From Alphaproteobacteria bacterium (GTDB lineage: Bacteria > Pseudomonadota > Alphaproteobacteria > SPJN01), in assembly GCA_049609145.1 (NCBI GenBank), contig JBMYYF010000003.1:152256-216255 (forward strand): DNA of 64,000 nt, in the 5' to 3' direction. The notes under the pieces were generated by a model that was not told the DNA's origin, searched no databases, and worked only from the letters and a program-made list of their open reading frames with translations. The position numbers and the translations under genes were made by a program. Positions within the stretch are counted from its first letter, which is position 1. Each line of letters opens with the position of its first letter. This document shows, in pieces, positions 3,953 through 24,298 of the stretch.

Positions 3953-4609
3953 ATGAGCGATCTTCCTGAAAATCTGGCGACGCAACTTGCGGCTCTGCAA
4001 GACATTCCAACTCATCGCCCCATCATCCTGTCGGATGCCGATGAAGTGATCTTGACCTTCGTTTCCGCTTTTGAAGCCTTTTGCGAAACGATTGGCCTAC
4101 AGCTCTCGCTCGACACGCTTGCCATCACTGGCAATGTTACCCGCATGGAAGACGGCACAGTGCTGACAGCAGAAGAAGTGTCTGCCGCGCTTGGGCGGTT
4201 TTTCGCGGAAGGCAGCCATCATCAATCCCCTGTTGAGGGCGCAATTGAAGGACTGAACCGCTTGGCAGAGGACGCGACGGTGATCATCCTCACCAATATC
4301 CCGTTTGAAAGCCGGGCGGTCCGCCAAGCCGCCATGGAAAGTTTTGGCCTGCACCACCCCATCATCGCCAATTCCGGCGGCAAGGGGCCAGCGGCTCAAG
4401 CGCTGACCCAAGGCATTTCTGCACCCTCGTTCTTTATTGACGACCTACCCCCTAATCATATTTCGGTTGCCAAACACGCGCCGCATATTGAGTGCATTCA
4501 CTATGTGGCCGACGAAAGACTGAACAAACTCATGCCCGATGCCCCCGATATCGCCTTGCGTGCCAAAAGCTGGGCCGAGATCGAAGCCCACATAATGGGA
4601 CGCATCTAG
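3953..4609 (+). CDS. putative HAD-superfamily hydrolase
   Basis: DxDxV motif I (ILSDADEVIL), Thr motif II (IILTNIP), GGKG and FIDD motifs III/IV; weak family assignment. Confidence 0.4.
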   Translation: MSDLPENLATQLAALQDIPTHRPIILSDADEVILTFVSAFEAFCETIGLQLSLDTLAITGNVTRMEDGTVLTAEEVSAALGRFFAEGSHHQSPVEGAIEGLNRLAEDATVIILTNIPFESRAVRQAAMESFGLHHPIIANSGGKGPAAQALTQGISAPSFFIDDLPPNHISVAKHAPHIECIHYVADERLNKLMPDAPDIALRAKSWAEIEAHIMGRI

Positions 4610-12762: not shown

Positions 12763-13110
12763 ATGTTGTGGCCCATTCTGGCATCGGATGACGATAATCA
12801 AAAAGGCGATGACGACGGCAAAAGCGGCACCGCCCTTTTAGAGCGCACAGAAACCAAAAAGCCCAATCTATACAAGGTGCTGTTGTTGAACGATGATTAC
12901 ACGCCGATGGAATTTGTCGTGCATGTGTTGCAACGCTATTTTGGCATGGATATGGATCAGGCAACCCAGGTAATGCTGGCTGTTCACCAGCACGGCATTG
13001 GGGTTTGTGGTGTATTCACCTATGAGATCGCAGAAACCAAAGTCGCGCAAGTTATGGACTTTGCCATCAAAAATCAGCATCCGCTTCAATGCACCCTTGA
13101 AAAAGAGTAA
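12763..13110 (+). CDS. clpS: ATP-dependent Clp protease adaptor ClpS
   Basis: [20 protein letters not shown]...[13 protein letters not shown] core; ATG immediately after upstream TAA. Confidence 0.85.
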
Positions 13111-13165
13111 CTTGAAAACGGATCCATAAACCGCCCAAGGATAAAGCCCCAAGAAAGGAAAGTTC

Positions 13166-15529
13166 TTGCCCGCATTCTCTAAAGTTCTTGAAGAAACACT
13201 ACGTCGCTCACTCGGTTTAGCCCGCGAGCACGCCCACGAGTTTGCAACATTGGAACACTTGCTGGCCGGATTGATAGACGATGAAGACGCCGCACATGTT
13301 CTGCGTGCCTGTGGGGCAAATCTTCCCGCGCTGCAAGAAGCGCTGTTGGGCTTTATCGAAAATGATCTTTCATATCTCATTCAACCGGGCAGCCACCAAG
13401 ACCCTGAACCCACTGCCGGGTTTCAGCGCGTTATCCACCGGGCGGTGATCAGCATTGATCAAAGCAATCGCGAAGAAGTTACCGGCGCAAATGTTTTGGT
13501 TGCCCTGTTCGCAGAACGCGAAAGCCATGCCGTTTACTTTTTAAACGAACAGGAAATCACCCGGCTGGATGCGGTGCGTTTTGTATCGCATGGCATTGCC
13601 AAGGTGCCCGGCCAATCCGAACCGCGGCCCGTGCGCGGTGCCAGTGGCATCGAACCGCCTTTGGGCGAAGATGGTGCCGAAAGCGCGGCGGAAGAAGAAA
13701 CCGCTTTGGGGGCCTATGCGGTGCATCTCAATGCCAAGGCCGAAGACGGCAAGATCGATCCCCTCATCGGTCGCGATGCAGAGGTGGAACGCACGATCCA
13801 GATTTTGTGCCGGCGCCGCAAAAACAACCCCCTACTGGTGGGCGACCCCGGCGTCGGCAAAACGGCCATCGCGGAGGGCTTGGCCCATCGCATTGTTTCT
13901 GGCGATGTGCCCGATGTGCTGGCAGACGCGCAGATTTATGCACTGGACATGGGGTCCCTTTTGGCAGGCACCCGCTATCGCGGCGACTTCGAGGAACGCT
14001 TGAAGGCCGTGGTCAATGAGATTGAAGGCATAGAAGATGCGGTGCTGTTCATCGATGAAATCCACACCGTTATTGGGGCCGGCGCCACATCCGGCGGGGC
14101 GATGGATGCATCCAACCTGCTGAAACCTGCCTTGCAAGCTGGTACTTTGCGCTGCATGGGATCGACCACCTATAAAGAATATCGCAGCTTCATCGAAAAG
14201 GATCGCGCCTTGCTGCGCCGTTTCCAGAAGATTGATGTCGTGGAACCCACCGTGACCGACGCCATCGATATTCTTAAAGGCTTGAAACCCTATTTCGAGG
14301 AATTTCACGGCGTGCGCTACACAGCAGACGCCATCAAAACCGCGGTTGAACTCTCCGCCCGCTATATCAATGATCGCAAATTGCCCGACAAGGCGATTGA
14401 TGTGATAGATGAAGTAGGCGCGGCAGAACGCATGAAGCCAGAAAACAAGCGCCGCAAAACCATTGGCGTCAAAGATGTAGAAGCCGTGGTCGCCAAGATC
14501 GCTCGCATCCCTCCCAAAAGCGTGTCCAAAGATGATCGCAGCCTGCTGGCAGATCTGGAAAGAAATCTGAAACGGGTCGTCTTCGGACAGGATGAAGCGA
14601 TTGAAGCCTTGGCCGCCTCTATCAAGCTTGCGCGCGCAGGTTTGCGTGAAGGCGAAAAGCCTGTTGGCTCTTATCTCTTCACCGGCCCCACCGGCGTCGG
14701 CAAAACAGAGGTTGCCCGCCAACTTGCCTCCATTCTTGGTGTCGAACTCAAACGCTTTGACATGTCGGAATATATGGAACGCCATGCCGTGTCTCGGCTG
14801 ATCGGCGCACCGCCGGGCTATGTGGGCTTCGATCAAGGTGGTTTGCTGACAGATGGGGTCGATCAAAACCCGCACTGCGTTTTGCTGCTGGATGAGATCG
14901 AAAAAGCGCATCCCGATGTGTTCAACATTTTGTTGCAAGTAATGGATCACGGCAAGCTGACGGACCATCAGGGCAAAACTGTCGATTTCCGTAACGTCAT
15001 TTTGATCATGACCTCCAATGCCGGGGCGGCAGACCTTGCCAAGGCGGCAATCGGTTTTGGCCGCACCGTGCGCGAAGGTGACGATCAAGAAGCGATTGAT
15101 CGCACATTCTCGCCAGAGTTCCGCAACCGGTTGGATTCCATCATCGGCTTCAACGCCCTGCCCGAACAGGTTGTTGCCCGCGTGGTAGAAAAATTTGTGC
15201 TGGAACTTGAAGGTCAACTTTCAGACCGCAATGTCATTTTTGAACTCACCCTAGAAGCCAATCGGTGGATCGCCAAAAAAGGCTTTGATCCGCAAATGGG
15301 CGCGCGTCCCCTTGCCCGGGTGATACAAGATCACATCAAGAAACCACTGGCAGATGAAATCTTGTTCGGCAAGCTCACCAAAGGCGGCATTGTGCGTGTC
15401 TATGTTGAAGATAAAAAACTTGCCTTCGAGGTGATAGACGAAGCGCCAAAACGTATAGCCCGTGATCCCGCACCCAAAAGCCTGCCGCGCAGCAAGAATG
15501 ACGACACACCGGCACCCGCAGAAAAATAG
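13166..15529 (+). CDS. clpA: ATP-dependent Clp protease ATP-binding subunit ClpA
   Basis: two AAA+ modules ([16 protein letters not shown] Walker A), Clp N-domain; TTG start preceded by AAGGAAAG RBS. Confidence 0.9.
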
Positions 15530-15552
15530 GGCTGAAAAATAGGTAAGCAGCT

Positions 15553-15642
15553 TGGCGGAGGGGGGGGGATTCGAACCCCCGAAAGGCTTTCACCTTTGCT
15601 GGTTTTCAAGACCAGTGCATTCAACCACTCTGCCACCCCTCC
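15553..15642 (-). tRNA. tRNA-Ser (anticodon TGA)
   Basis: minus strand reads GGAGGGGTGGCAGAGTGGTTGAATGC...anticodon loop CTTGAAA...long variable arm...GGGGGTTCGAATCCCCC-CCCCTCC-G-CCA; 90 nt, type II. Confidence 0.85.
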
Positions 15643-15794
15643 AAGGGCCACAAGCAATTCTAACATGAATCGCTGCAAAGCTGGGCGGAGCATAATAAAA
15701 GCGGCGAAAAGCGCAAGCCCGTCACACCGCCGCATCTGGATTTCTTTGACATCGGGGCTGCACGCCCTACCATCGCCCTAAAGTGAGGACGAAA

Positions 15795-16529
15795 ATGCTG
15801 GAAAATCAAACCGCTTTGGTCACAGGCGCCGGCAGGGGGCTGGGCTTTTCTATTGCCCGAGCCTTCGCCAAGGCGGGCGCGAAAGTGCTTTTAAACGGGC
15901 GCAACGCAGATGCTCTCTCCAAAGCGGCGGCGAAGATAGGGGCCAACGCCCAGCCCCTGCCCTTTGATGTAACCGATGAGGCCGCTGTTACCGCTGCATT
16001 TCGCACAATCAGCAGCACTGACAGTCCATTGACCATTTTGGTCAACAATGTCGGGCAGCGTGATCGGCGTGTCTCAACCGATTTCACCCTCGCAGAAGCC
16101 CGCAACCTGACAGAAGCAAACCTGATCGCCCCTTTTCATTTGGCGCAGCAGGCAGCGCGCGTCATGCAGCCGGGCAGCGCCATCCTCAACATTACGTCAA
16201 TTGCAGGCCCGCTCGCCTCGGGGCAAGATGCAGTTTACACTATGGCAAAAGGTGGGCTGGATGCCCTTACCCGTACCTTGGCGGCAGAACTTGGCCCCAA
16301 AGGCATACGGGTAAACGCGATTGCGCCCGGCTATTTCGCCACCGAAGCCAATCAGCAGATGACGGAAAATCCCGCGATTGCCGATTGGCTCAAGCAACGC
16401 ACATCTCTTGGGCGTTGGGGCAAGCCGGATGAAATTGCGGGGGCCGCAGTGTTTCTCTGCTCCCCCGCTGCCAGTTACATCACAGGTCAAACACTCGCCG
16501 TGGATGGCGGGTATATGACTCATTTTTGA
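15795..16529 (+). CDS. SDR family oxidoreductase
   Basis: TGAGRGLG Rossmann motif, YxxxK (YTMAKGG); ORF-track GTG 15783 lies within the GAGGA RBS, so ATG 15795 is preferred. Confidence 0.75.
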
Positions 16530-16541
16530 ACATAAGCTGTC

Positions 16542-19067
16542 CTAGAAGACGAAACGGCCCTGCAATTCAAAGCTACGGCCCGGCTCCAATATGCCGAAAA
16601 AGCCTTCTTGCTGCGCCGGAGTATCATTTTGAATAATCGTGCGCCGCAGATCGGTTAGATTATCGCCAAACAGCATCACCGCCCAACGACCATCCTCCGC
16701 CCGCACGCCAATACGCGCCCGCAACATCCAGCTTGCCTCGCGCATTGTGCGCTCATCCAGATCTACATTGTTGAAGTTATCGCTTTCATACAACGCATCG
16801 ATACCCGCATGAAGATTAAAGCCCCAATTGAACAACTCACGATCCCATGTGGCCGAAAGTGTGTGCACCCATTCCGGTGCCAGCGGCAAGGTTTCACCGC
16901 TTATGTCACAGGGCAAGAAACCTTGATAATCAACCTGACAAGGCCCGCCTTCAAAAGTGTCATACTGGGATTTGGTGTAAGAGCCATTTGCCGCCAGTAA
17001 CAACCCTTCCATTGGCACCAGCATGGTTTCCCACTCTGCCCCATACACCGTGGCGTCCGCCGCATTATCAACCACAAATTCAACGCCGTTAAAGGCCGCG
17101 ATCTGAAGCCCCTGGAATTGCGTATAGAACAATGAGATGTTGATGCGCGCAGCACCTTCCAACCATTCTGACTTCAGGCCCACCTCATAGGTGTCGGATT
17201 TTTCTTCTTCAAACTCAATGCTATCAGGGCGGTTGGGTTGAGCGTTAAACCCGCCGGACTTAAAGCCTCGGCCATAGGTAAAGTAAACCATCATGTCATC
17301 ATCGGGCTTATAGAGCGCTGAAAACTTCGGTGAAATATCAAACTCTGTCCGCTCGCGGCTATCTTCAAAGGGCTGAATACCTGGCGTGAAAATCTGCAAA
17401 ATGTGGGCACCACCAATTGGCCCCTGCCCGATCGAATAGCCCGGATTGCCATTTGCCAAATCAGGTCCGTTCGGGTCTTCGATAATAATATTGCCGGATT
17501 GACCGGTTTGGTTGTTGATCAAATCATGCCGGATATAGAGTTCTTTTTCTTCGTATGACACGCGGCCACCGAAGGTAAAGGTGATCTCCTCATTGATATT
17601 CCAGTTTACTTGACCGAAGGCAGCAAAGCTTTGTGCCTGCTGATCAAACACCCGTGATGAAATCTCATAAGGGTCGGTGATAACAGCCTGCTTTGCCAAA
17701 ATAGATTGGGCTGCCAGTTGCCCTTGCAAGGCGGCATACTCGCTATCCAACACAAAATCCCGACATTGCAGGAATTGTTCACGTGGCAATTGCGGATCAC
17801 ACGCGCCCAGTTCAATGGCACCGGTCAACATCACCGCGTCCACCACATCAATATATGTCGGATAATCGTAAGTGGCGTAAATATCCGTCATGTACAAAAA
17901 TGCACCGGCCACATATTCCCATGTACCGGGGCCAGAGGTAATGCGGAATTCTTGGCTGAACTGCCGATAATCTTCGTTGTTATCCAAGGTTAGGGCGCGC
18001 ACTGGCGCATAGTCGGGATCAACAAACAAATCTTCATCAAACCACGCGATATTGGTAATGGAGGTGATCAAATCATCGCCCCAATCATATTCAACTGTCA
18101 GCGTCGTATCCCAATAAGCGCGATCCACATAGTCGCGAAAATCTTTCGAGGTCAGGCCATCTTCCGCATCTGCGCTGAACTGCGGGTCAATCACCTTGAA
18201 CGCAGCATCAAAGCGGCGCTTGGTGTGCGTTGCCTGTGAGCCGGACCCGTCTTGCGAAAGCGTGCCGCCGTTCAAAGATGCCATAAACCGCAAATTGGCA
18301 CTGGGTTCCCAACCAAATTTCAGGCGCGCTACCAAATTATCAATCTGGTTTTCGTCCACGCCCAACAACGTATTTTGAATATCGCCATCGCGCGTTTCTT
18401 TCAGGAAGGCAAACCGAAATGATGTATCGTCGTTGAACAACGGGCCGCCAATTGCGCCACGATAGCGTTGAAAATTATCGGTCCCGAAAGTGGCATCCCC
18501 ATCGGCTGACCATTCCGCCTCGGGTCGGGCGGTGCGAATATGCAACGCCCCTGCCACTGCATTCTTACCGAACAGCGTGCCTTGCGGTCCCCGCAACACC
18601 TCGATTGAAGCCAGATCTAACTGACCATTGGAGAGGTAAGAAGGACGACCGTAGAACACTTCATCAATCACAATCGCGACCGATTGCTCAAAGCCGCGGT
18701 TCCAGCCAGAACCAATGCCGCGCATATAGATGAAGTTAAAGGTCGGCGTATTGATGATGTTCATATTAGGCGTGTATTCGCCCACCGCCGCCAAATCGCC
18801 AATGTTCTTTTCTTTTAGCGTTTCGCCGCCAATAGCGGTCACTGAAAGCGGCACGTCTTGCACATCTTCTGCCCGCTTTTGGGCGGTCACGATAATTTCA
18901 TCGAGCTTCGGGGCAGAACGTTTTTCCTCTGCCTGCGGTGCGGGATCCGCCGCCTGCTCACCCTCTTCCGGCAAAGCGTCCAACGCTTCATCCTGCGCGA
19001 ACGCTGGTACGATAAATCCAATAGAAAAAGTCAACGCAAACAGCGCCGCAAAGTGACGAGCCAACAT
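16542..19067 (-). CDS. TonB-dependent receptor
   Basis: 841 aa; signal peptide; plug and 22-strand barrel signatures; C-terminal ...LQGRFVF. Confidence 0.85.
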   Translation of the reverse strand: MLARHFAALFALTFSIGFIVPAFAQDEALDALPEEGEQAADPAPQAEEKRSAPKLDEIIVTAQKRAEDVQDVPLSVTAIGGETLKEKNIGDLAAVGEYTPNMNIINTPTFNFIYMRGIGSGWNRGFEQSVAIVIDEVFYGRPSYLSNGQLDLASIEVLRGPQGTLFGKNAVAGALHIRTARPEAEWSADGDATFGTDNFQRYRGAIGGPLFNDDTSFRFAFLKETRDGDIQNTLLGVDENQIDNLVARLKFGWEPSANLRFMASLNGGTLSQDGSGSQATHTKRRFDAAFKVIDPQFSADAEDGLTSKDFRDYVDRAYWDTTLTVEYDWGDDLITSITNIAWFDEDLFVDPDYAPVRALTLDNNEDYRQFSQEFRITSGPGTWEYVAGAFLYMTDIYATYDYPTYIDVVDAVMLTGAIELGACDPQLPREQFLQCRDFVLDSEYAALQGQLAAQSILAKQAVITDPYEISSRVFDQQAQSFAAFGQVNWNINEEITFTFGGRVSYEEKELYIRHDLINNQTGQSGNIIIEDPNGPDLANGNPGYSIGQGPIGGAHILQIFTPGIQPFEDSRERTEFDISPKFSALYKPDDDMMVYFTYGRGFKSGGFNAQPNRPDSIEFEEEKSDTYEVGLKSEWLEGAARINISLFYTQFQGLQIAAFNGVEFVVDNAADATVYGAEWETMLVPMEGLLLAANGSYTKSQYDTFEGGPCQVDYQGFLPCDISGETLPLAPEWVHTLSATWDRELFNWGFNLHAGIDALYESDNFNNVDLDERTMREASWMLRARIGVRAEDGRWAVMLFGDNLTDLRRTIIQNDTPAQQEGFFGILEPGRSFELQGRFVF

Positions 19068-19208
19068 GCCGTCTCCCCCAAAAATGCGACCCTGTACAGA
19101 TAGGGTCGGTCCCCAAATTAGAGCTGCGCCTTTTCAGCTTGCAGCGATTTTTAGACAACACCACCTGCCACGGGCGTGTTGTCGGTACCGACCATGCCTG
19201 TTCTTGCC

Positions 19209-19249
19209 ATAAAGAAAACGCCTGCGCAATCCATGATTGCACAGGCGTT
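19209..19249 (-). terminator. rho-independent terminator downstream of the DUF1446 gene
   Basis: 15-bp stem (one mismatch) AACGCCTGCGCAATC/GATTGCACAGGCGTT with CATG loop; on the minus strand followed by TTTTCTTT. Confidence 0.5.
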
Positions 19250-19271
19250 AAACAACAATTGTGTAAGTAGA

Positions 19272-21071
19272 TTACAGGCTTTTCGCCAAGGCCGCAGGCA
19301 CCCGGATCGGCGTATCCAATATTAATTGGGCATAGGTTTTGCCCTGTGGGTCGTTGCGCACAGAAGCAACACCGCCGCCGCCCAACACATCATGCAGCAA
19401 AAAGTTGATGGCGTTGGAGCCGGGCATATAGAACCGCTCGACGCTGCCATCAAGGAAATGTGCAAAATGCTTGGCAATGGCAGCCTCATCCAACGCCGCC
19501 CAAATATATGGCAAGTATGCGGCTTTGCGCGCGATGACGCCGATATTGGCTTTATTGCCCTTATCCCCGCTGCGACCCCATGCCAATGCCACCAAAGGCA
19601 CCTCCACCACATCCCCCGATAGATCAGGTGCCGCAGGTGGTGCGGGCGGTGTGCTCGCTTTGGGATCGTATGGCACCACAACTTTGTCGGTGAACGTCTC
19701 TGTTTTGCCATCCACATCCACCGTAATAGGCACTTGCCCCTTATCAATGGTCATGGAAAACAGCCGCACAACAGGCGATGGCTTGGCACGATTACCTGCG
19801 AAGCCCGCCAAGCCGGGGGGTGCCGCAAGAGCCAAGCCCGTCGCCTCACGCAGCATGATTGCGATGCCTGCTTGATCGGGATGTTTGGCGGCGATCTTCA
19901 CATCCACTTCCCGCGCGCCTTGAATGCGGCGCGCGTCACCATAGTGATCTTCTGCGCCAATCACCTCAACCTCGGTATGGGTAAAATCAGGCATGTTCAA
20001 ACGGTGGAACTGCTTGCGCGCCCGCGCATAAACAGCATCTGTGAAGGCACGCGCTTTTCTATCAGCATCAATCCCGCAATAGGTAAACACCGTGCCACCG
20101 CGCCAGCCATCGCTAAACGTCGTAGAAACCTTATAGCTATCAGGCACCCCTGCCCCCTTGGCATGAGACACCTTCACGCGATCGCGGCCCAATTCTTCCA
20201 ATTGCACTTGGGAGAAATCGCAAACCACATCTGGCAGGAAGTAAGCCTGCGGATCGCCGATTTCATACAGCATTTGTTCAGCCACGGTGCCAACCATCAC
20301 CCGGCCACCTGTGCCCGCAGGCTTGGTGGTGACGAACGACCCATCAGCGCTGACCTCTGCAATTGGATAACCAATATCCTCATAGGTACCGACAATTTCT
20401 TCCCAATCGGTGAAATTGCCACCTGTAGCTTGCGGACCGCATTCCAGAATATGCCCGCACAATGAGCCGCCCGCCAATTCGTCCAAATCTTCCGGCTGCC
20501 AGCCAAAGGCGTGAATGCACGCGCCCAGTGTCACCGCGCTATCCACGGAACGTCCGGTAATCACGATATCTGCGCCTTCATTCAACGCCTTGGCGACAGG
20601 GAATGCCCCCAAATAGGCATTCATGGACAAAATATTATCGGGATCGGGAAAGCCTTCGCCGGTGAACATCTCCGCCGGGGCGGTTGCACCAATTTCGGCA
20701 CGCCGCTCAACCAAATCATCCCCCACCACAACAGCAACTTTCAGATCAAGCCCAAGCTCTTGCACCAAGGCGCGCACCGCTGCGCCACAGGCTGCCGGGT
20801 TCACCCCACCGGCATTGGACAATATCTTGACGCCTTGATTGGCGATCTCCGTCAAATTTTGTTTGAGCGCGACGGAAACGAAGTCGCCCGCATAACCCAT
20901 ATCGGGATTTTTGGCGCGCGCGCGTGCCATGATAGACATGGTGATCTCTGCCAAATAGTCATAGACGATGAAATCAAGATTGCCATCACCCAGCAACTGG
21001 GTGGTTGCGTGCCCGGCATCGCCCCAAAAACCGCTGGCCCCACCGATACGAATTGTTTTGCTATCACTCAT
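19272..21071 (-). CDS. fused DUF1446 (AtuA-like) / DUF4387 protein
   Basis: N-terminal MSDSKTIRIGGASGFWGD typical of DUF1446; C-terminal ~100 aa resembles DUF4387; 599 aa. Confidence 0.6.
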   Translation of the reverse strand: MSDSKTIRIGGASGFWGDAGHATTQLLGDGNLDFIVYDYLAEITMSIMARARAKNPDMGYAGDFVSVALKQNLTEIANQGVKILSNAGGVNPAACGAAVRALVQELGLDLKVAVVVGDDLVERRAEIGATAPAEMFTGEGFPDPDNILSMNAYLGAFPVAKALNEGADIVITGRSVDSAVTLGACIHAFGWQPEDLDELAGGSLCGHILECGPQATGGNFTDWEEIVGTYEDIGYPIAEVSADGSFVTTKPAGTGGRVMVGTVAEQMLYEIGDPQAYFLPDVVCDFSQVQLEELGRDRVKVSHAKGAGVPDSYKVSTTFSDGWRGGTVFTYCGIDADRKARAFTDAVYARARKQFHRLNMPDFTHTEVEVIGAEDHYGDARRIQGAREVDVKIAAKHPDQAGIAIMLREATGLALAAPPGLAGFAGNRAKPSPVVRLFSMTIDKGQVPITVDVDGKTETFTDKVVVPYDPKASTPPAPPAAPDLSGDVVEVPLVALAWGRSGDKGNKANIGVIARKAAYLPYIWAALDEAAIAKHFAHFLDGSVERFYMPGSNAINFLLHDVLGGGGVASVRNDPQGKTYAQLILDTPIRVPAALAKSL

Positions 21072-21082
21072 TTGGGGGCTCC

Positions 21083-21691
21083 TTAAGCGTCTTTAATGCG
21101 TTGATAGGCGGGGCGATCGGTAATGCGATCCCACCAGCGTTGTATGTTGGGCGTGAAGGCCTCTTCGATCTTCAGGTCTTTTGCCAGGAACAAGGCATAG
21201 CCCACGGCGATATCTGCCATGGTAAAGCGCCCGCCTGCCATATAGTCATTATCTTCGGCCCAGCTTTCAACACTGCGCAAGCGGGCTAAAAACCAGCCTT
21301 TGTAATCTTCTGCCACTTGGGGCTGGCGGCGTTCCTCCGGCTCTAATGCCGTATAGCGCAGCACCAAGGTTTGCGGGAAAGTCAGCGTCGCGTCGGACCT
21401 GTGCAGCCAGTTGATATAATCGCCATAGCCCGGCTCATCTACCCGCACCTCTAAATCGGTCGGGCCATATTTCGCGGCAAGATACTGGCAGCAGCCCGCA
21501 CTCTCCGTAATACGCGCTTCACCATCCACCAAAAGCGGGATCGTACCCAGCGGGTTTTCCTGCTTGTATTCCTTATGAAAAACTCGGGGCGGGAACGGCA
21601 TGGTGATCAACTCATATTCCAGACCCATTTCTTCCAGCGCCCAAACCGCGCGCAAGGAACGTGCGCCTTTGCAGTGATAGAGTGTGATCAT
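21083..21691 (-). CDS. glutathione S-transferase family protein
   Basis: N-terminal thioredoxin-like GST fold (ITLYHCKGARSLR...), 202 aa. Confidence 0.75.
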   Translation of the reverse strand: MITLYHCKGARSLRAVWALEEMGLEYELITMPFPPRVFHKEYKQENPLGTIPLLVDGEARITESAGCCQYLAAKYGPTDLEVRVDEPGYGDYINWLHRSDATLTFPQTLVLRYTALEPEERRQPQVAEDYKGWFLARLRSVESWAEDNDYMAGGRFTMADIAVGYALFLAKDLKIEEAFTPNIQRWWDRITDRPAYQRIKDA

Positions 21692-21726
21692 GCTTTTCTC
21701 CCAAACTTGACTTTGCTGAAAATGTC

Positions 21727-22869
21727 TTACGCCATCGCGCGGCTGGGGGAAAGCGCCGCAACCTCAAGCCCGGCAGCCGCAATATCCGCGGGCACTGTGT
21801 CGCCTAACACCAAGGCCGCAGCAACACGCGCCATGGCAGGCGCGGTTTGAATACCGTATCCCCCCTGCCCGGCCAGCCAGAAAAAGCCCTGTTTCCCCGG
21901 TTCAAAGCCCACAATCGGCACCCCATCAGGCGCGAAGGTGCGCAACCCAGCCCATTTGTGCTCAATGCGCGGAATATCCAGCGTGGTGGCCCGCATAATC
22001 TTATCGGCACAGATGGCAACATCCATCTCATCCGGCTGGGCATCGTGGGGCCGCATTTCCGTCTCATCACAGGGCGATCCCAGCAATAGCCCTGCTTCAT
22101 GCTTGAAGTAGAATTCCTCGTCCACATCAATCACCAAGGGCCAATTGGCAATATCCAATCCGGCGGGTGCCTTGAAGGTAAGTGCCGTGCGGCGCAGGGG
22201 CCTGAGCCCTTTCTCGGCAACGCCGCATCGGCGGGCCACCGTATCGGCCCAGGCCCCTGCCGCGTTGATAATCAGTGGGGCTTCAAATATCCCTGCCGGT
22301 GTTTCCAGCATCCAAACATTGTCTTGCGACTTGCCCGCCAGAACTTCGGCCTTTGGCACAAATTCCGCCCCGCCCCCCAAAGCGCCGCGGAAAAACCCCA
22401 TATGGATTTCATTCACATCCATCGTAGCTGAATGTGGCTCAAACACTGCCCCGGCCACATATTCAGGGTTCAACACTGGTACACGGCGCACAACCTCGGC
22501 GCGCGCAAGCTGTTCAATACCGGAAAGCTGAGCTGTCAAATCCTGATATGTTTCATCAAGGCTGCCTTGTTGGTCGGCCCGGCCAATAAACAGGCAACCC
22601 ACATCAGGCCCCAAAAGGGGGTTTTCAGCGAATTCGTCCGGTGTTTCTTTAAAGAAAGGCCCACTGGCATTGGTAAGCGCAATAATGGGCGGCGGCCCAT
22701 ATCCCAAGGCATACATGGCCGCAGAACGCCCCGTCGTGTGATAGCCGGGACTGTTTTCCTGTTCCAACAGCACCACTTTGCAGCCAGCCCGAGCCAGTTC
22801 ATAGGCCACAGAAGCCCCGGCCATACCGGCCCCGACAACCGCCACATCATATGTTCGACTTTCGCTCAT
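21727..22869 (-). CDS. FAD-dependent oxidoreductase (DAO family)
   Basis: YDVAVVGAGMAGASVAYELA dinucleotide fold; start moved to MSESRTYD (22869) from the longer ORF-track start. Confidence 0.7.
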   Translation of the reverse strand: MSESRTYDVAVVGAGMAGASVAYELARAGCKVVLLEQENSPGYHTTGRSAAMYALGYGPPPIIALTNASGPFFKETPDEFAENPLLGPDVGCLFIGRADQQGSLDETYQDLTAQLSGIEQLARAEVVRRVPVLNPEYVAGAVFEPHSATMDVNEIHMGFFRGALGGGAEFVPKAEVLAGKSQDNVWMLETPAGIFEAPLIINAAGAWADTVARRCGVAEKGLRPLRRTALTFKAPAGLDIANWPLVIDVDEEFYFKHEAGLLLGSPCDETEMRPHDAQPDEMDVAICADKIMRATTLDIPRIEHKWAGLRTFAPDGVPIVGFEPGKQGFFWLAGQGGYGIQTAPAMARVAAALVLGDTVPADIAAAGLEVAALSPSRAMA

Positions 22870-23035
22870 GCCCCGCATGTCGCACAGCCAGACTTGCGCC
22901 ACAAGGCCCATATGGGCGCTATCTGTGACCATTGGCCAACCTTGACTTTAGGGGGTGGCAGTTGGACAAGACCTTGCCTTACAATCTCCATGATTGTTTA
23001 GAAGAATCATCGCCTTAATTATCAGGGACTACACC

Positions 23036-24298
23036 ATGGCGTTTCGTGCCGCACTAATTGGTTTGATTGGCATTTTTGCTCTTATGCTTCCGGCTTCCTC
23101 CGCCGTGCGGGCACAGGAAGAAGATGTGCAAAAAATTGCTGCCATTGTGAACGATGAACTCATTTCTGAATATGATGTTGATCAACGGCTTTTGCTGGTT
23201 TTTGCCTCATCGGGACGACGTCCCGGGGCAGAAATTCTGGAACAGATGCGGCCAGAAATTCTAGGCACCCTGATCGATGAAAAACTGCAACTGCAAGCCG
23301 CCCGTGAGTTTGAACTCACCATGTCGGAAGAAGAATTGCTGAACGCGGTTGAATATATCGCCAGCCAAAACGATATGGACGCTTCGGCCTTTCGTTCCCG
23401 CTTGGGCGCAGCCGGTGTTGCCTGGCGCGGCTATCTGGAACAAGTGCGCGCCAATCTGGTTTGGGATCGCCTGGTCCGGGGCCGTTTCTCAGGCTCCGTC
23501 ACCGTATCTGAAGAAGACGTGGAAGCTTATTTGGCCCGCATTAAAGAAAATGCCGACAAGCCTGAACGCCGCGTCGCAGAAATTTTTCTGGCAGTCGATA
23601 ACCCAGAAGAAGATCAAGCCGTCGCGCGGCAAGCCGCTGCCATCTATTCCCAGCTTGAACAAGGTGCCAGCTTCCCCGAAATGGCCCGTCAGTTTTCGCA
23701 AGCAGCAACTGCCGCCACAGGTGGCGATATCGGCTGGGTACGGGAAGGATTACTTGACCCCGAAATTGATGCCACCCTCAAGCAACTGCAACCGCGTGAA
23801 GTGTCTCGCCCGGTGCGCACCGTTGCAGGCTATCACATTGTACTGGTCATCAATGAGCGCACGCTCGGTAAGGCAGACCCGGATAAAGATCGTTACACCA
23901 TCAAGCAAGTTGCCATTCCCTTCGGTGAAGATGGTGGCATCAAGGCAGAAGCAGATTTGACCGATCTGCGCACCGAGATCAATTCTTGTTCATCTGTTGA
24001 TCGCTTGGCGGCGCAGGTTGAAAATGCGCGCGTACTGGATTTTGGTACATTAATTGCCGCAGATTTGGCCGGCGATATGCGCGAAAAACTCACCCCGCTG
24101 ACAACTGGCGGTAAAACAGCGATTGAGCCAACAGAAACCGACGTGCGCTTTCTTTATGTGTGCGAGAAAGTCGCCGACAAGCCAGCCCTGCCCACCAAGG
24201 CAGATATCGATAATCGACTTTCGGGACAACAAATTGCCCGCATGGCACGTCGCTATCTACGCGATTTACGGCGCGACGCCACGATCGAATACCGCTAG
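23036..24298 (+). CDS. surA: periplasmic chaperone / peptidyl-prolyl isomerase SurA
   Basis: signal peptide MAFRAALIGLIGIFALMLPASSAVRA, SurA N-domain plus parvulin domain; followed by pdxA-rsmA as in the classical surA-pdxA-ksgA locus. Confidence 0.75.
   Translation: MAFRAALIGLIGIFALMLPASSAVRAQEEDVQKIAAIVNDELISEYDVDQRLLLVFASSGRRPGAEILEQMRPEILGTLIDEKLQLQAAREFELTMSEEELLNAVEYIASQNDMDASAFRSRLGAAGVAWRGYLEQVRANLVWDRLVRGRFSGSVTVSEEDVEAYLARIKENADKPERRVAEIFLAVDNPEEDQAVARQAAAIYSQLEQGASFPEMARQFSQAATAATGGDIGWVREGLLDPEIDATLKQLQPREVSRPVRTVAGYHIVLVINERTLGKADPDKDRYTIKQVAIPFGEDGGIKAEADLTDLRTEINSCSSVDRLAAQVENARVLDFGTLIAADLAGDMREKLTPLTTGGKTAIEPTETDVRFLYVCEKVADKPALPTKADIDNRLSGQQIARMARRYLRDLRRDATIEYR

Follow-up and report, generated by a model that had tools for sequence, protein, structure and literature searches.

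A four-gene array encoding AtuA, a glutathione S-transferase, a DauA-like dehydrogenase and a TonB-dependent receptor is probably a lineage-specific mosaic of two gene pairs

Does a run of four neighboring genes that combines an outer-membrane transporter with three enzymes encode a single pathway? This question is raised by a locus within a 64,000-nucleotide stretch of DNA (hereafter the window) from an Alphaproteobacteria bacterium (assembly GCA_049609145.1, contig JBMYYF010000003.1, positions 152,256 to 216,255 of the forward strand). The open reading frame (ORF) listing of the window contains four consecutive minus-strand ORFs that code, in the direction of transcription, for an FAD-dependent oxidase of the DAO family, a glutathione S-transferase (GST), an AtuA protein with a DUF1446 domain, and a TonB-dependent receptor (Table 1). 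A preliminary description of this DNA had placed the genes at these positions and named the same domains, all of which the ORF listing and Pfam searches confirm, and it had interpreted the array as a substrate-specific module for uptake and catabolism. We conclude that the array is probably not a dedicated four-gene module but a mosaic, specific to this lineage, of two gene pairs that are each conserved. One pair would be gst-atuA, and the other would be formed by the genes for the DauA-like dehydrogenase and the TonB-dependent receptor, with gst-atuA situated between the two members of the second pair at this locus.

This conclusion is carried mainly by the genes that surround orthologs in other genomes. 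We examined the best 80 of 325 AtuA loci (one genome per species, 59-68% identity to the window AtuA) and the best 80 of 377 GST loci (metagenomic, 56-71% identity), many of the latter being on short contigs. Because neighbor clustering that was based on ORF calling was crude, with antisense ORFs sometimes displacing real genes, the final counts were derived from tblastn searches with defined queries, and their values depend on the thresholds applied. For the AtuA loci we required an E value of 1e-6 and more than 50% coverage for the oxidase and at least 35% identity for a relative of the receptor, and for the GST loci an E value of 1e-8. Neither the oxidase nor a receptor relative was detected in any of the 80 AtuA loci, and neither had a match in the 80 GST loci. 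The order DAO-GST-AtuA-receptor is present only in three contigs, all from close relatives (loci L081, L167 and L168; locus L173 duplicates the L168 contig). As a result, the conserved four-gene linkage anticipated in the preliminary description largely fails, as does the joint linkage across unrelated genomes that a dedicated uptake and catabolic module would lead one to expect. By our comparison of gene neighborhoods, the only pairwise links that recur are GST-AtuA and oxidase-receptor.

The orthologs of AtuA most often keep different company. A carboxyltransferase gene lies immediately 3′ of the AtuA gene in 56 of the 80 loci, and a biotin carboxylase gene is found downstream in 50. These carboxylase loci usually include an enoyl-CoA hydratase gene and frequently include genes for acyl-CoA dehydrogenases and a divergent TetR regulator (as in L082), and in several ortholog loci a TetR gene is located upstream of AtuA. 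Judged by gene content, this layout is that of the atu (geranyl-CoA carboxylase) cluster, with AtuA at the head of the order AtuA-carboxyltransferase-hydratase-biotin carboxylase. The window AtuA has its Pfam family and its fused build of approximately 600 amino acids (aa) in common with the Pseudomonas and Thauera AtuA proteins encoded in atuRABCDEFGH clusters. However, the window gene is detached from the carboxylase, hydratase, acyl-CoA dehydrogenase and TetR genes, and is flanked instead by the GST, oxidase and receptor genes. A divergent TetR-type regulator (AtuR) was likewise not found on either side of the array.

The chemistry to be expected of AtuA can be approached through its domains and fold. 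Residues 7-452 match PF07287 (E=1e-141, 473 bits versus a cut-off of 22.8) and residues 491-589 match PF23544, AtuA_ferredoxin, which corresponds to the former DUF4387-type tail (E=2.9e-25), and thus both assignments proposed in the preliminary description are supported by domain searches with hidden Markov models. The implication that the fusion of these two domains is special did not survive, since both are present in 120 of the 120 best AtuA homologs, each about 600 aa long. Given also that Thauera AtuA is a protein of 615 aa (PMC4847356), we regard the fused form as the standard form of AtuA. The window protein matches the fold of the solved family member CmlA, in that profile and fold searches both returned 9erq_A, named ‘Citramalate lyase, subunit A (cmlA)’; a single-sequence phmmer search with AtuA against PDB sequences gave no match. 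In the CmlAB structure (PDB 9ERQ/9EVF), which binds the nucleotide AMPPNP, the AtuA family subunit A and the DUF4387 subunit B are separate chains, whereas the window AtuA is one chain. Moreover, CmlAB acts on free citramalate, whereas the substrate of the window AtuA is presumed to be a CoA thioester.

A 2026 preprint makes use of a two-subunit Cml enzyme (cmlAB) from Raoultella planticola, which may be the enzyme of 9ERQ and which splits citramalate directly into pyruvate and acetate (bioRxiv 10.64898/2026.01.16.699985). This activity fits a 2015 remark by the same Berg laboratory concerning a DUF1446 gene that, in enterobacteria, is located downstream of the gene for methylaspartate ammonia-lyase in a methylaspartate/mesaconate cluster (PMC4682846), a gene context that differs from that of the window AtuA. 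From fold and context combined, we infer that the window AtuA is a CmlA-type lyase for a 3-hydroxy-3-alkylglutaryl-CoA. Specifically, it would most likely cleave acetate from a compound such as 3-hydroxy-3-isohexenylglutaryl-CoA, and this step would come after gamma-carboxylation and hydration when methyl-branched (acyclic terpenoid) acyl-CoAs are broken down. The reaction would be chemically the same as the conversion of citramalate to pyruvate and acetate, wherein acetate is removed from a tertiary hydroxy acid and a ketone is left. AtuA has been assigned tentatively as the lyase of the atu pathway (PMC4847356), and AtuA-like lyases have been annotated in the anaerobic naphthalene thn operon (PMC12016498). 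Our literature searches recovered no publication that links citramalate lyase with AtuA. The preliminary statement that none of the components has a known substrate was too strong, given that AtuA orthologs reside in atu/carboxylase clusters, that a split member of the family is a solved citramalate lyase, and that the oxidase is a homolog of DauA.

Evidence that AtuA and the GST belong together comes from both directions. The window GST has the thioredoxin-like N-terminal domain and the helical C-terminal domain of the superfamily, with matches to GST_N (45 bits) and GST_C (36 bits) that each exceed the Pfam cut-off, and its orthologs, at 54-60% identity, are encoded inside the AtuA clusters of L002, L003, L005 and L008, which are from Parvibaculum and Rhodobiaceae genomes and one Pseudomonadales metagenome-assembled genome. 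Although these four are the only AtuA loci among the 80 with an ortholog of the window GST, 28 others encode a protein with an MDMPI_N domain (DinB-like, PF11716), such that 32 of the 80 carry a thiol-enzyme-like partner. The GST fold and the DinB/MDMPI fold both include thiol-dependent transferases and maleylpyruvate isomerases. Proteins of these two folds occupy the same slot, in that either the GST or the MDMPI_N gene sits after the biotin carboxylase gene or directly after AtuA. In full clusters the GST gene starts 4520-4538 nucleotides (nt) after AtuA (L002, L003, L005), and the MDMPI_N gene starts 4464-4537 nt after AtuA in seven loci (L022, L024, L025, L036, L038, L051 and L063) and near 6.8 kb in three further loci. 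In approximately 18 loci of the Sphingorhabdus/Parasphingorhabdus type (within L039-L078), the MDMPI_N gene is located immediately 3′ of AtuA without carboxylase genes. Two unrelated folds share one cluster slot, an arrangement reminiscent of non-orthologous displacement at a thiol-dependent step that is coupled to AtuA. The GST would then be a recurrent thiol-dependent partner of AtuA that is replaced by a DinB/MDMPI_N protein in other genomes.

The reverse test with the 80 GST loci recovered biotin carboxylase in 23, matches to two carboxyltransferase queries in 16 and 11, and AtuA in seven. Among GST contigs of at least 15 kb, about two-thirds carry carboxylase genes, as read from the table of matches. 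Conservation within the GST family is tight: an alignment of 12 sequences has 57 invariant columns, among them His6, Cys7, Arg11 and Ser12. Its rigid core, composed of HRSDATLTFPQT.VLRY..LEP, FPPR and the N-terminal His6-Cys7...Arg11-Ser12 element, is more suggestive of an enzyme with a specific role than of a GST for general detoxification. The nearest solved relatives are generic GSTs (E values of about 1e-18 to 1e-16), and no NCBIfam model covers the family. Assignment as a zeta-class GST or maleylacetoacetate isomerase (TIGR01262, maiA) was rejected at a score of 38.9 bits versus a cut-off of 171, with the match restricted to the N-terminal part. A search of the literature for glutathione-dependent isomerases in the atu pathway yielded nothing specific. 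Two observations on the MDMPI_N loci may be added. The Sphingorhabdus/Parasphingorhabdus-type loci consist of AtuA and MDMPI_N alone, with a divergent SDR gene. Locus L170 (16486-22580, minus strand) contains an apparent operon with the order AtuA-MDMPI_N-SDR-DsbA-like (PF01323)-NMO-ApbA, in which two thiol-enzyme-like families adjoin one AtuA.

The oxidase, which matches PF01266 with E=2.5e-56, is 42% identical over 370 residues (E=5.5e-91) to the D-arginine dehydrogenase DauA of P. aeruginosa (PDB 3NYC/6P9D). It retains Tyr53, Arg222, Tyr249, Arg305 and Gly332 of DauA, residues that in DauA bind the carboxylate and amino group of the substrate. In contrast, Glu87, which binds the cationic side chain in DauA, is replaced by Gly, and His48 is replaced by Met. 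Because of these two changes we do not file the protein as a D-arginine dehydrogenase, and it differs from DauA also in that it is not accompanied by dauB and dauR. To judge from these residues, the enzyme probably oxidizes a neutral D-amino acid or a related amine, and thus a non-cationic substrate. The motifs GP.VGCLF and SAAMY of the oxidase are also present in the two subfamily members that were compared (P0142 and P0144). The gene had been correctly placed in the preliminary description, but the end reported for it, 22869, is an internal ATG codon that would yield a protein of 380 aa, whereas the longest ORF runs to 22932. Nonetheless, the 380-aa start is the more likely one, because homologs are mostly 365-390 aa long and the gene call in L167 is 380 aa.

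The receptor matches the Plug (E=2e-12) and barrel (E=3e-31) families of Pfam, the latter corresponding to a 22-strand barrel domain, and its translation begins with a signal peptide, contains a DEIIVTA TonB box, and ends in a C-terminal Phe. Membership in the siderophore, haem or B12 receptor subfamilies of NCBIfam was rejected; the best model, TIGR01783, gave 100.7 bits versus a cut-off of 223.5, and the remainder scored far lower. The link between this receptor and the oxidase derives from the best homologs of the oxidase outside the lineage (53-56% identity), which form FolD-oxidase pairs in L086, L169 and L171. A full receptor homolog of 47-49% identity is encoded divergently from the FolD-oxidase pair in L086 and L169, and in L171 the gene divergent from the pair is an incomplete ORF that matches the plug domain of the window receptor at 74% identity. 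The oxidases of these three loci (L086, 1-9104; L169, 56-5277; L171, 1-2945) have Gly at the Glu87 position, and in L086 and L171 a GH3 glycosidase gene and two GST-like genes are next in line. The named relatives of the receptor clade are from Zhongshania, Spongiibacter, Solimonas, Nevskiales and Oceanococcus, and the clade offers a hint that its substrates may be lipid or hydrophobic. A receptor paralog with 47% identity is encoded on L172, another contig of the L081 genome (GCA_025450675.1), where its neighbors code for a thioesterase, a luciferase-like monooxygenase, an MFS transporter and an SDR protein.

Within the array, the receptor gene is set apart from the enzyme genes. The intergenic gaps measure 35 nt (DAO-GST), 11 nt (GST-AtuA) and 204 nt (AtuA-receptor), and the first two contain no terminator-like site. 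Beginning 22 nt past the atuA stop codon, however, is a hairpin with a 15-bp stem followed by TTTTCTTT, and no other terminator-like site in the region is as strong. Its folding energy is -24.8 kcal/mol (z = -5.9), none of 200 shuffled sequences folds as well, and the hairpin is kept in L081, L167 and L168 with a compensated change of T-A to C-G. The terminator that the preliminary description had noted between the DUF1446 gene and the receptor gene is therefore real, being a GC-rich hairpin with a U-tract that follows the stop codon and is conserved in three contigs, and transcription is predicted to terminate there. The two short gaps without terminator-like sites suggest that a single transcript, starting in the region divergent to surA and stopping at the hairpin, probably covers the oxidase, GST and AtuA genes.

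When the 204-nt spacer between atuA and the receptor gene is aligned across the window, L081, L167 and L168 (short coding flanks included), identity is 78-81%, compared to about 45% at four-fold sites of the flanking genes. The corresponding segments are 11801-11998 in L081, 10186-10396 in L167 and 11801-11999 in L168. The spacer includes a palindrome at window positions 19180-19193 (GGTCGGTACCGACA), of the form GGTCGGTA(T)CCGACA, and a second hairpin (19108-19087) that lies about 20 nt 5′ of the receptor start codon and exhibits compensated changes. These elements could represent an operator and a leader RNA, and their presence suggests that the receptor is under dedicated regulation. Rfam searches identified no family in the region, and no riboswitch upstream of the receptor, with a tRNA nearby as the only hit. 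The spacer motifs were found neither in the rest of the window nor outside this lineage among 173 fetched loci, and, being confined to one site in one lineage, they define no regulon. Transcription of the receptor gene thus probably starts separately, in the conserved region upstream of it. A promoter of its own had already been proposed for it, and the strong conserved terminator, together with a spacer far better conserved than synonymous sites, makes this proposal probable.

The comparison with the close relatives also bears on how the array arose. Between the window and L081, AtuA is 91% and the GST 95% identical, versus 70-80% for most flanking proteins, which makes these two the best conserved proteins of the region. 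One explanation for this higher conservation is that the gst-atuA pair arrived recently by horizontal transfer, which we consider very improbable. Synonymous sites are saturated throughout, identity at four-fold sites being 45.5% for atuA and 44-48% for the flanks, and the GST gene alone is somewhat higher (61% over 87 sites); in addition, there is no step in GC content along the region. Because the atuA value is the same as that of the flanks, the high protein identity indicates strong purifying selection on the two genes and not recent transfer.

A reading in which all four genes form one substrate-specific module, such that the receptor imports a compound that the oxidase, GST and AtuA degrade, is harder to dismiss, and it draws on several points that weigh against a mosaic of two pairs. 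The genes are on the same strand with gaps of only 35 and 11 nt between the first three, and their order has outlived synonymous saturation in four contigs (the window, L081, L167 and L168); co-transcription of the oxidase gene with gst-atuA, combined with this retained order, would also fit a functional link. The best homolog of the receptor in an outgroup (56% identity, L170) is encoded only 8 kb from an AtuA-MDMPI_N operon, which is our sole hint of a receptor-AtuA link. Relatives of the oxidase and receptor adjoin elsewhere, an association that would also fit one module. The L086 and L169 oxidases are only 55% identical and thus represent at least two lineages, but L086 and L171 probably represent one, so that the oxidase-receptor link amounts to two or three independent cases. 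Furthermore, FolD is a housekeeping protein, and the adjacency of oxidase and receptor may therefore be inherited gene order without shared function. Even so, we judge a single module to be unlikely. Neither the AtuA loci nor the GST loci contain the other two genes at the cut-offs given above, and a conserved terminator and a separate upstream region part the receptor from the enzyme genes. In addition, the order of the housekeeping genes surA-pdxA-rsmA, der and bamB is no less well preserved in these contigs, and hence the retained order of the four genes is weak evidence for shared function.

The other points that must be set against the mosaic interpretation concern the role assigned to AtuA. 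Searches of the whole 64-kb window with tblastn and Pfam found no carboxylase (atuC/atuF), hydratase (atuE), acyl-CoA dehydrogenase (atuD) or TetR genes of the atu/liu type, and as a consequence the pathway context of this AtuA is taken entirely from orthology. Identity between CmlA and the window AtuA is only 15%, a literature search found no demonstrated activity for an AtuA protein, and one review gives the lyase step to LiuE rather than to AtuA (PMC4097962). Some of these same facts could mean that AtuA is a CoA-independent lyase that, like CmlAB, acts on a free hydroxy-dicarboxylic acid, possibly the product of the neighboring oxidase. The only characterized relative of AtuA does use free citramalate, carboxylase genes were not found in the window, and AtuA occurs with a thiol-enzyme partner but without carboxylase in the approximately 18 sphingomonad loci described above. 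We regard this alternative as quite doubtful. The 15% identity to CmlA contrasts with the 59-68% identity to AtuA proteins of carboxylase clusters, the fused build is that of the atu type and not of split CmlAB, and the window contains no methylaspartate/mesaconate pathway genes of the kind found near the enterobacterial DUF1446 gene (PMC4682846). Thus, a mosaic in which AtuA acts on a CoA thioester remains our preferred interpretation.

The finding is real yet largely ordinary, in that four members of known families are present in a lineage-specific arrangement. For annotation purposes, the array is best described as encoding an AtuA-type lyase accompanied by its GST, together with a dehydrogenase that is DauA-like but of non-cationic specificity and a receptor that is transcribed independently. 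Annotation as a novel uptake-and-catabolism island is unwarranted, and to this extent our analysis of the array is mostly a correction. One useful outcome is that AtuA can be connected with a newly solved citramalate lyase, whose 2025 structure provides the first mechanistic anchor for the AtuA family and makes the long-standing but tentative assignment of AtuA as the acetate-releasing lyase of terpenoid breakdown directly testable. The one new lead is that AtuA recurrently has a GST or a DinB-like protein as its partner, and this partner may mark a further thiol-dependent step in branched-chain or terpenoid acyl-CoA breakdown. Its presence in 32 of 80 genomes points to a missing step, probably glutathione-dependent, in the way marine bacteria break down methyl-branched lipids.

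Table 1. Features of the four-gene array, in window coordinates
Feature	Position	Strand	Length	Remarks
TonB-dependent outer-membrane receptor	16542-19067	minus	841 aa	Plug and barrel domains
Conserved non-coding region 5′ of the receptor gene	19068-19216	minus		spacer alignment of four relatives
Intrinsic-terminator hairpin 3′ of atuA	19217-19249	minus		15-bp stem, 3-nt loop, TTTTCTTT to ~19207
Full-length AtuA, predicted acetate-releasing C-C lyase	19272-21071	minus	599 aa	DUF1446 and ferredoxin-like DUF4387-type domain
Glutathione S-transferase, tightly conserved orthologous family	21083-21691	minus	202 aa	GST_N and GST_C
DauA-like FAD-dependent amino-acid dehydrogenase, DAO family	21727-22932	minus	longest ORF 401 aa	PF01266

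The window derives from a metagenome-assembled genome whose proteins carry the NCBI accessions MGB0920916-MGB0920923, and the surroundings of the array are made up largely of housekeeping genes. On one side are the genes for ClpS, ClpA, tRNA-Ser and an SDR protein, and on the other those for SurA, pdxA, rsmA, a Zn-dependent alcohol dehydrogenase, der, bamB and panB. In L081, L167 and L168, a TauD-family gene lies between the receptor and SDR genes, whereas the window has no TauD gene. The L081 and L168 contigs also carry, 7-12 kb downstream, genes for an alpha/beta-hydrolase, an enoyl-CoA hydratase, a TetR regulator, biotin carboxylase, BCCP, carboxyltransferase and a second receptor, with two hypothetical genes preceding the hydrolase gene. 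This carboxyltransferase shares no more than 40-42% identity with the AtuC-type proteins encoded next to AtuA orthologs, indicating that the cluster specifies a different acyl-CoA carboxylase, of a kind that is also found near many GST orthologs.

In E. coli, lptD is at the head of the surA-pdxA-rsmA operon. In the window, the divergent oxidase gene, and not lptD, directly precedes surA-pdxA-rsmA (region 22933-24298). At the opposite end of the array, a tRNA-Ser(TGA) gene (15553-15642, minus strand) marks a break in gene order after the SDR gene and is followed by clpA and clpS (region 12763-16529).

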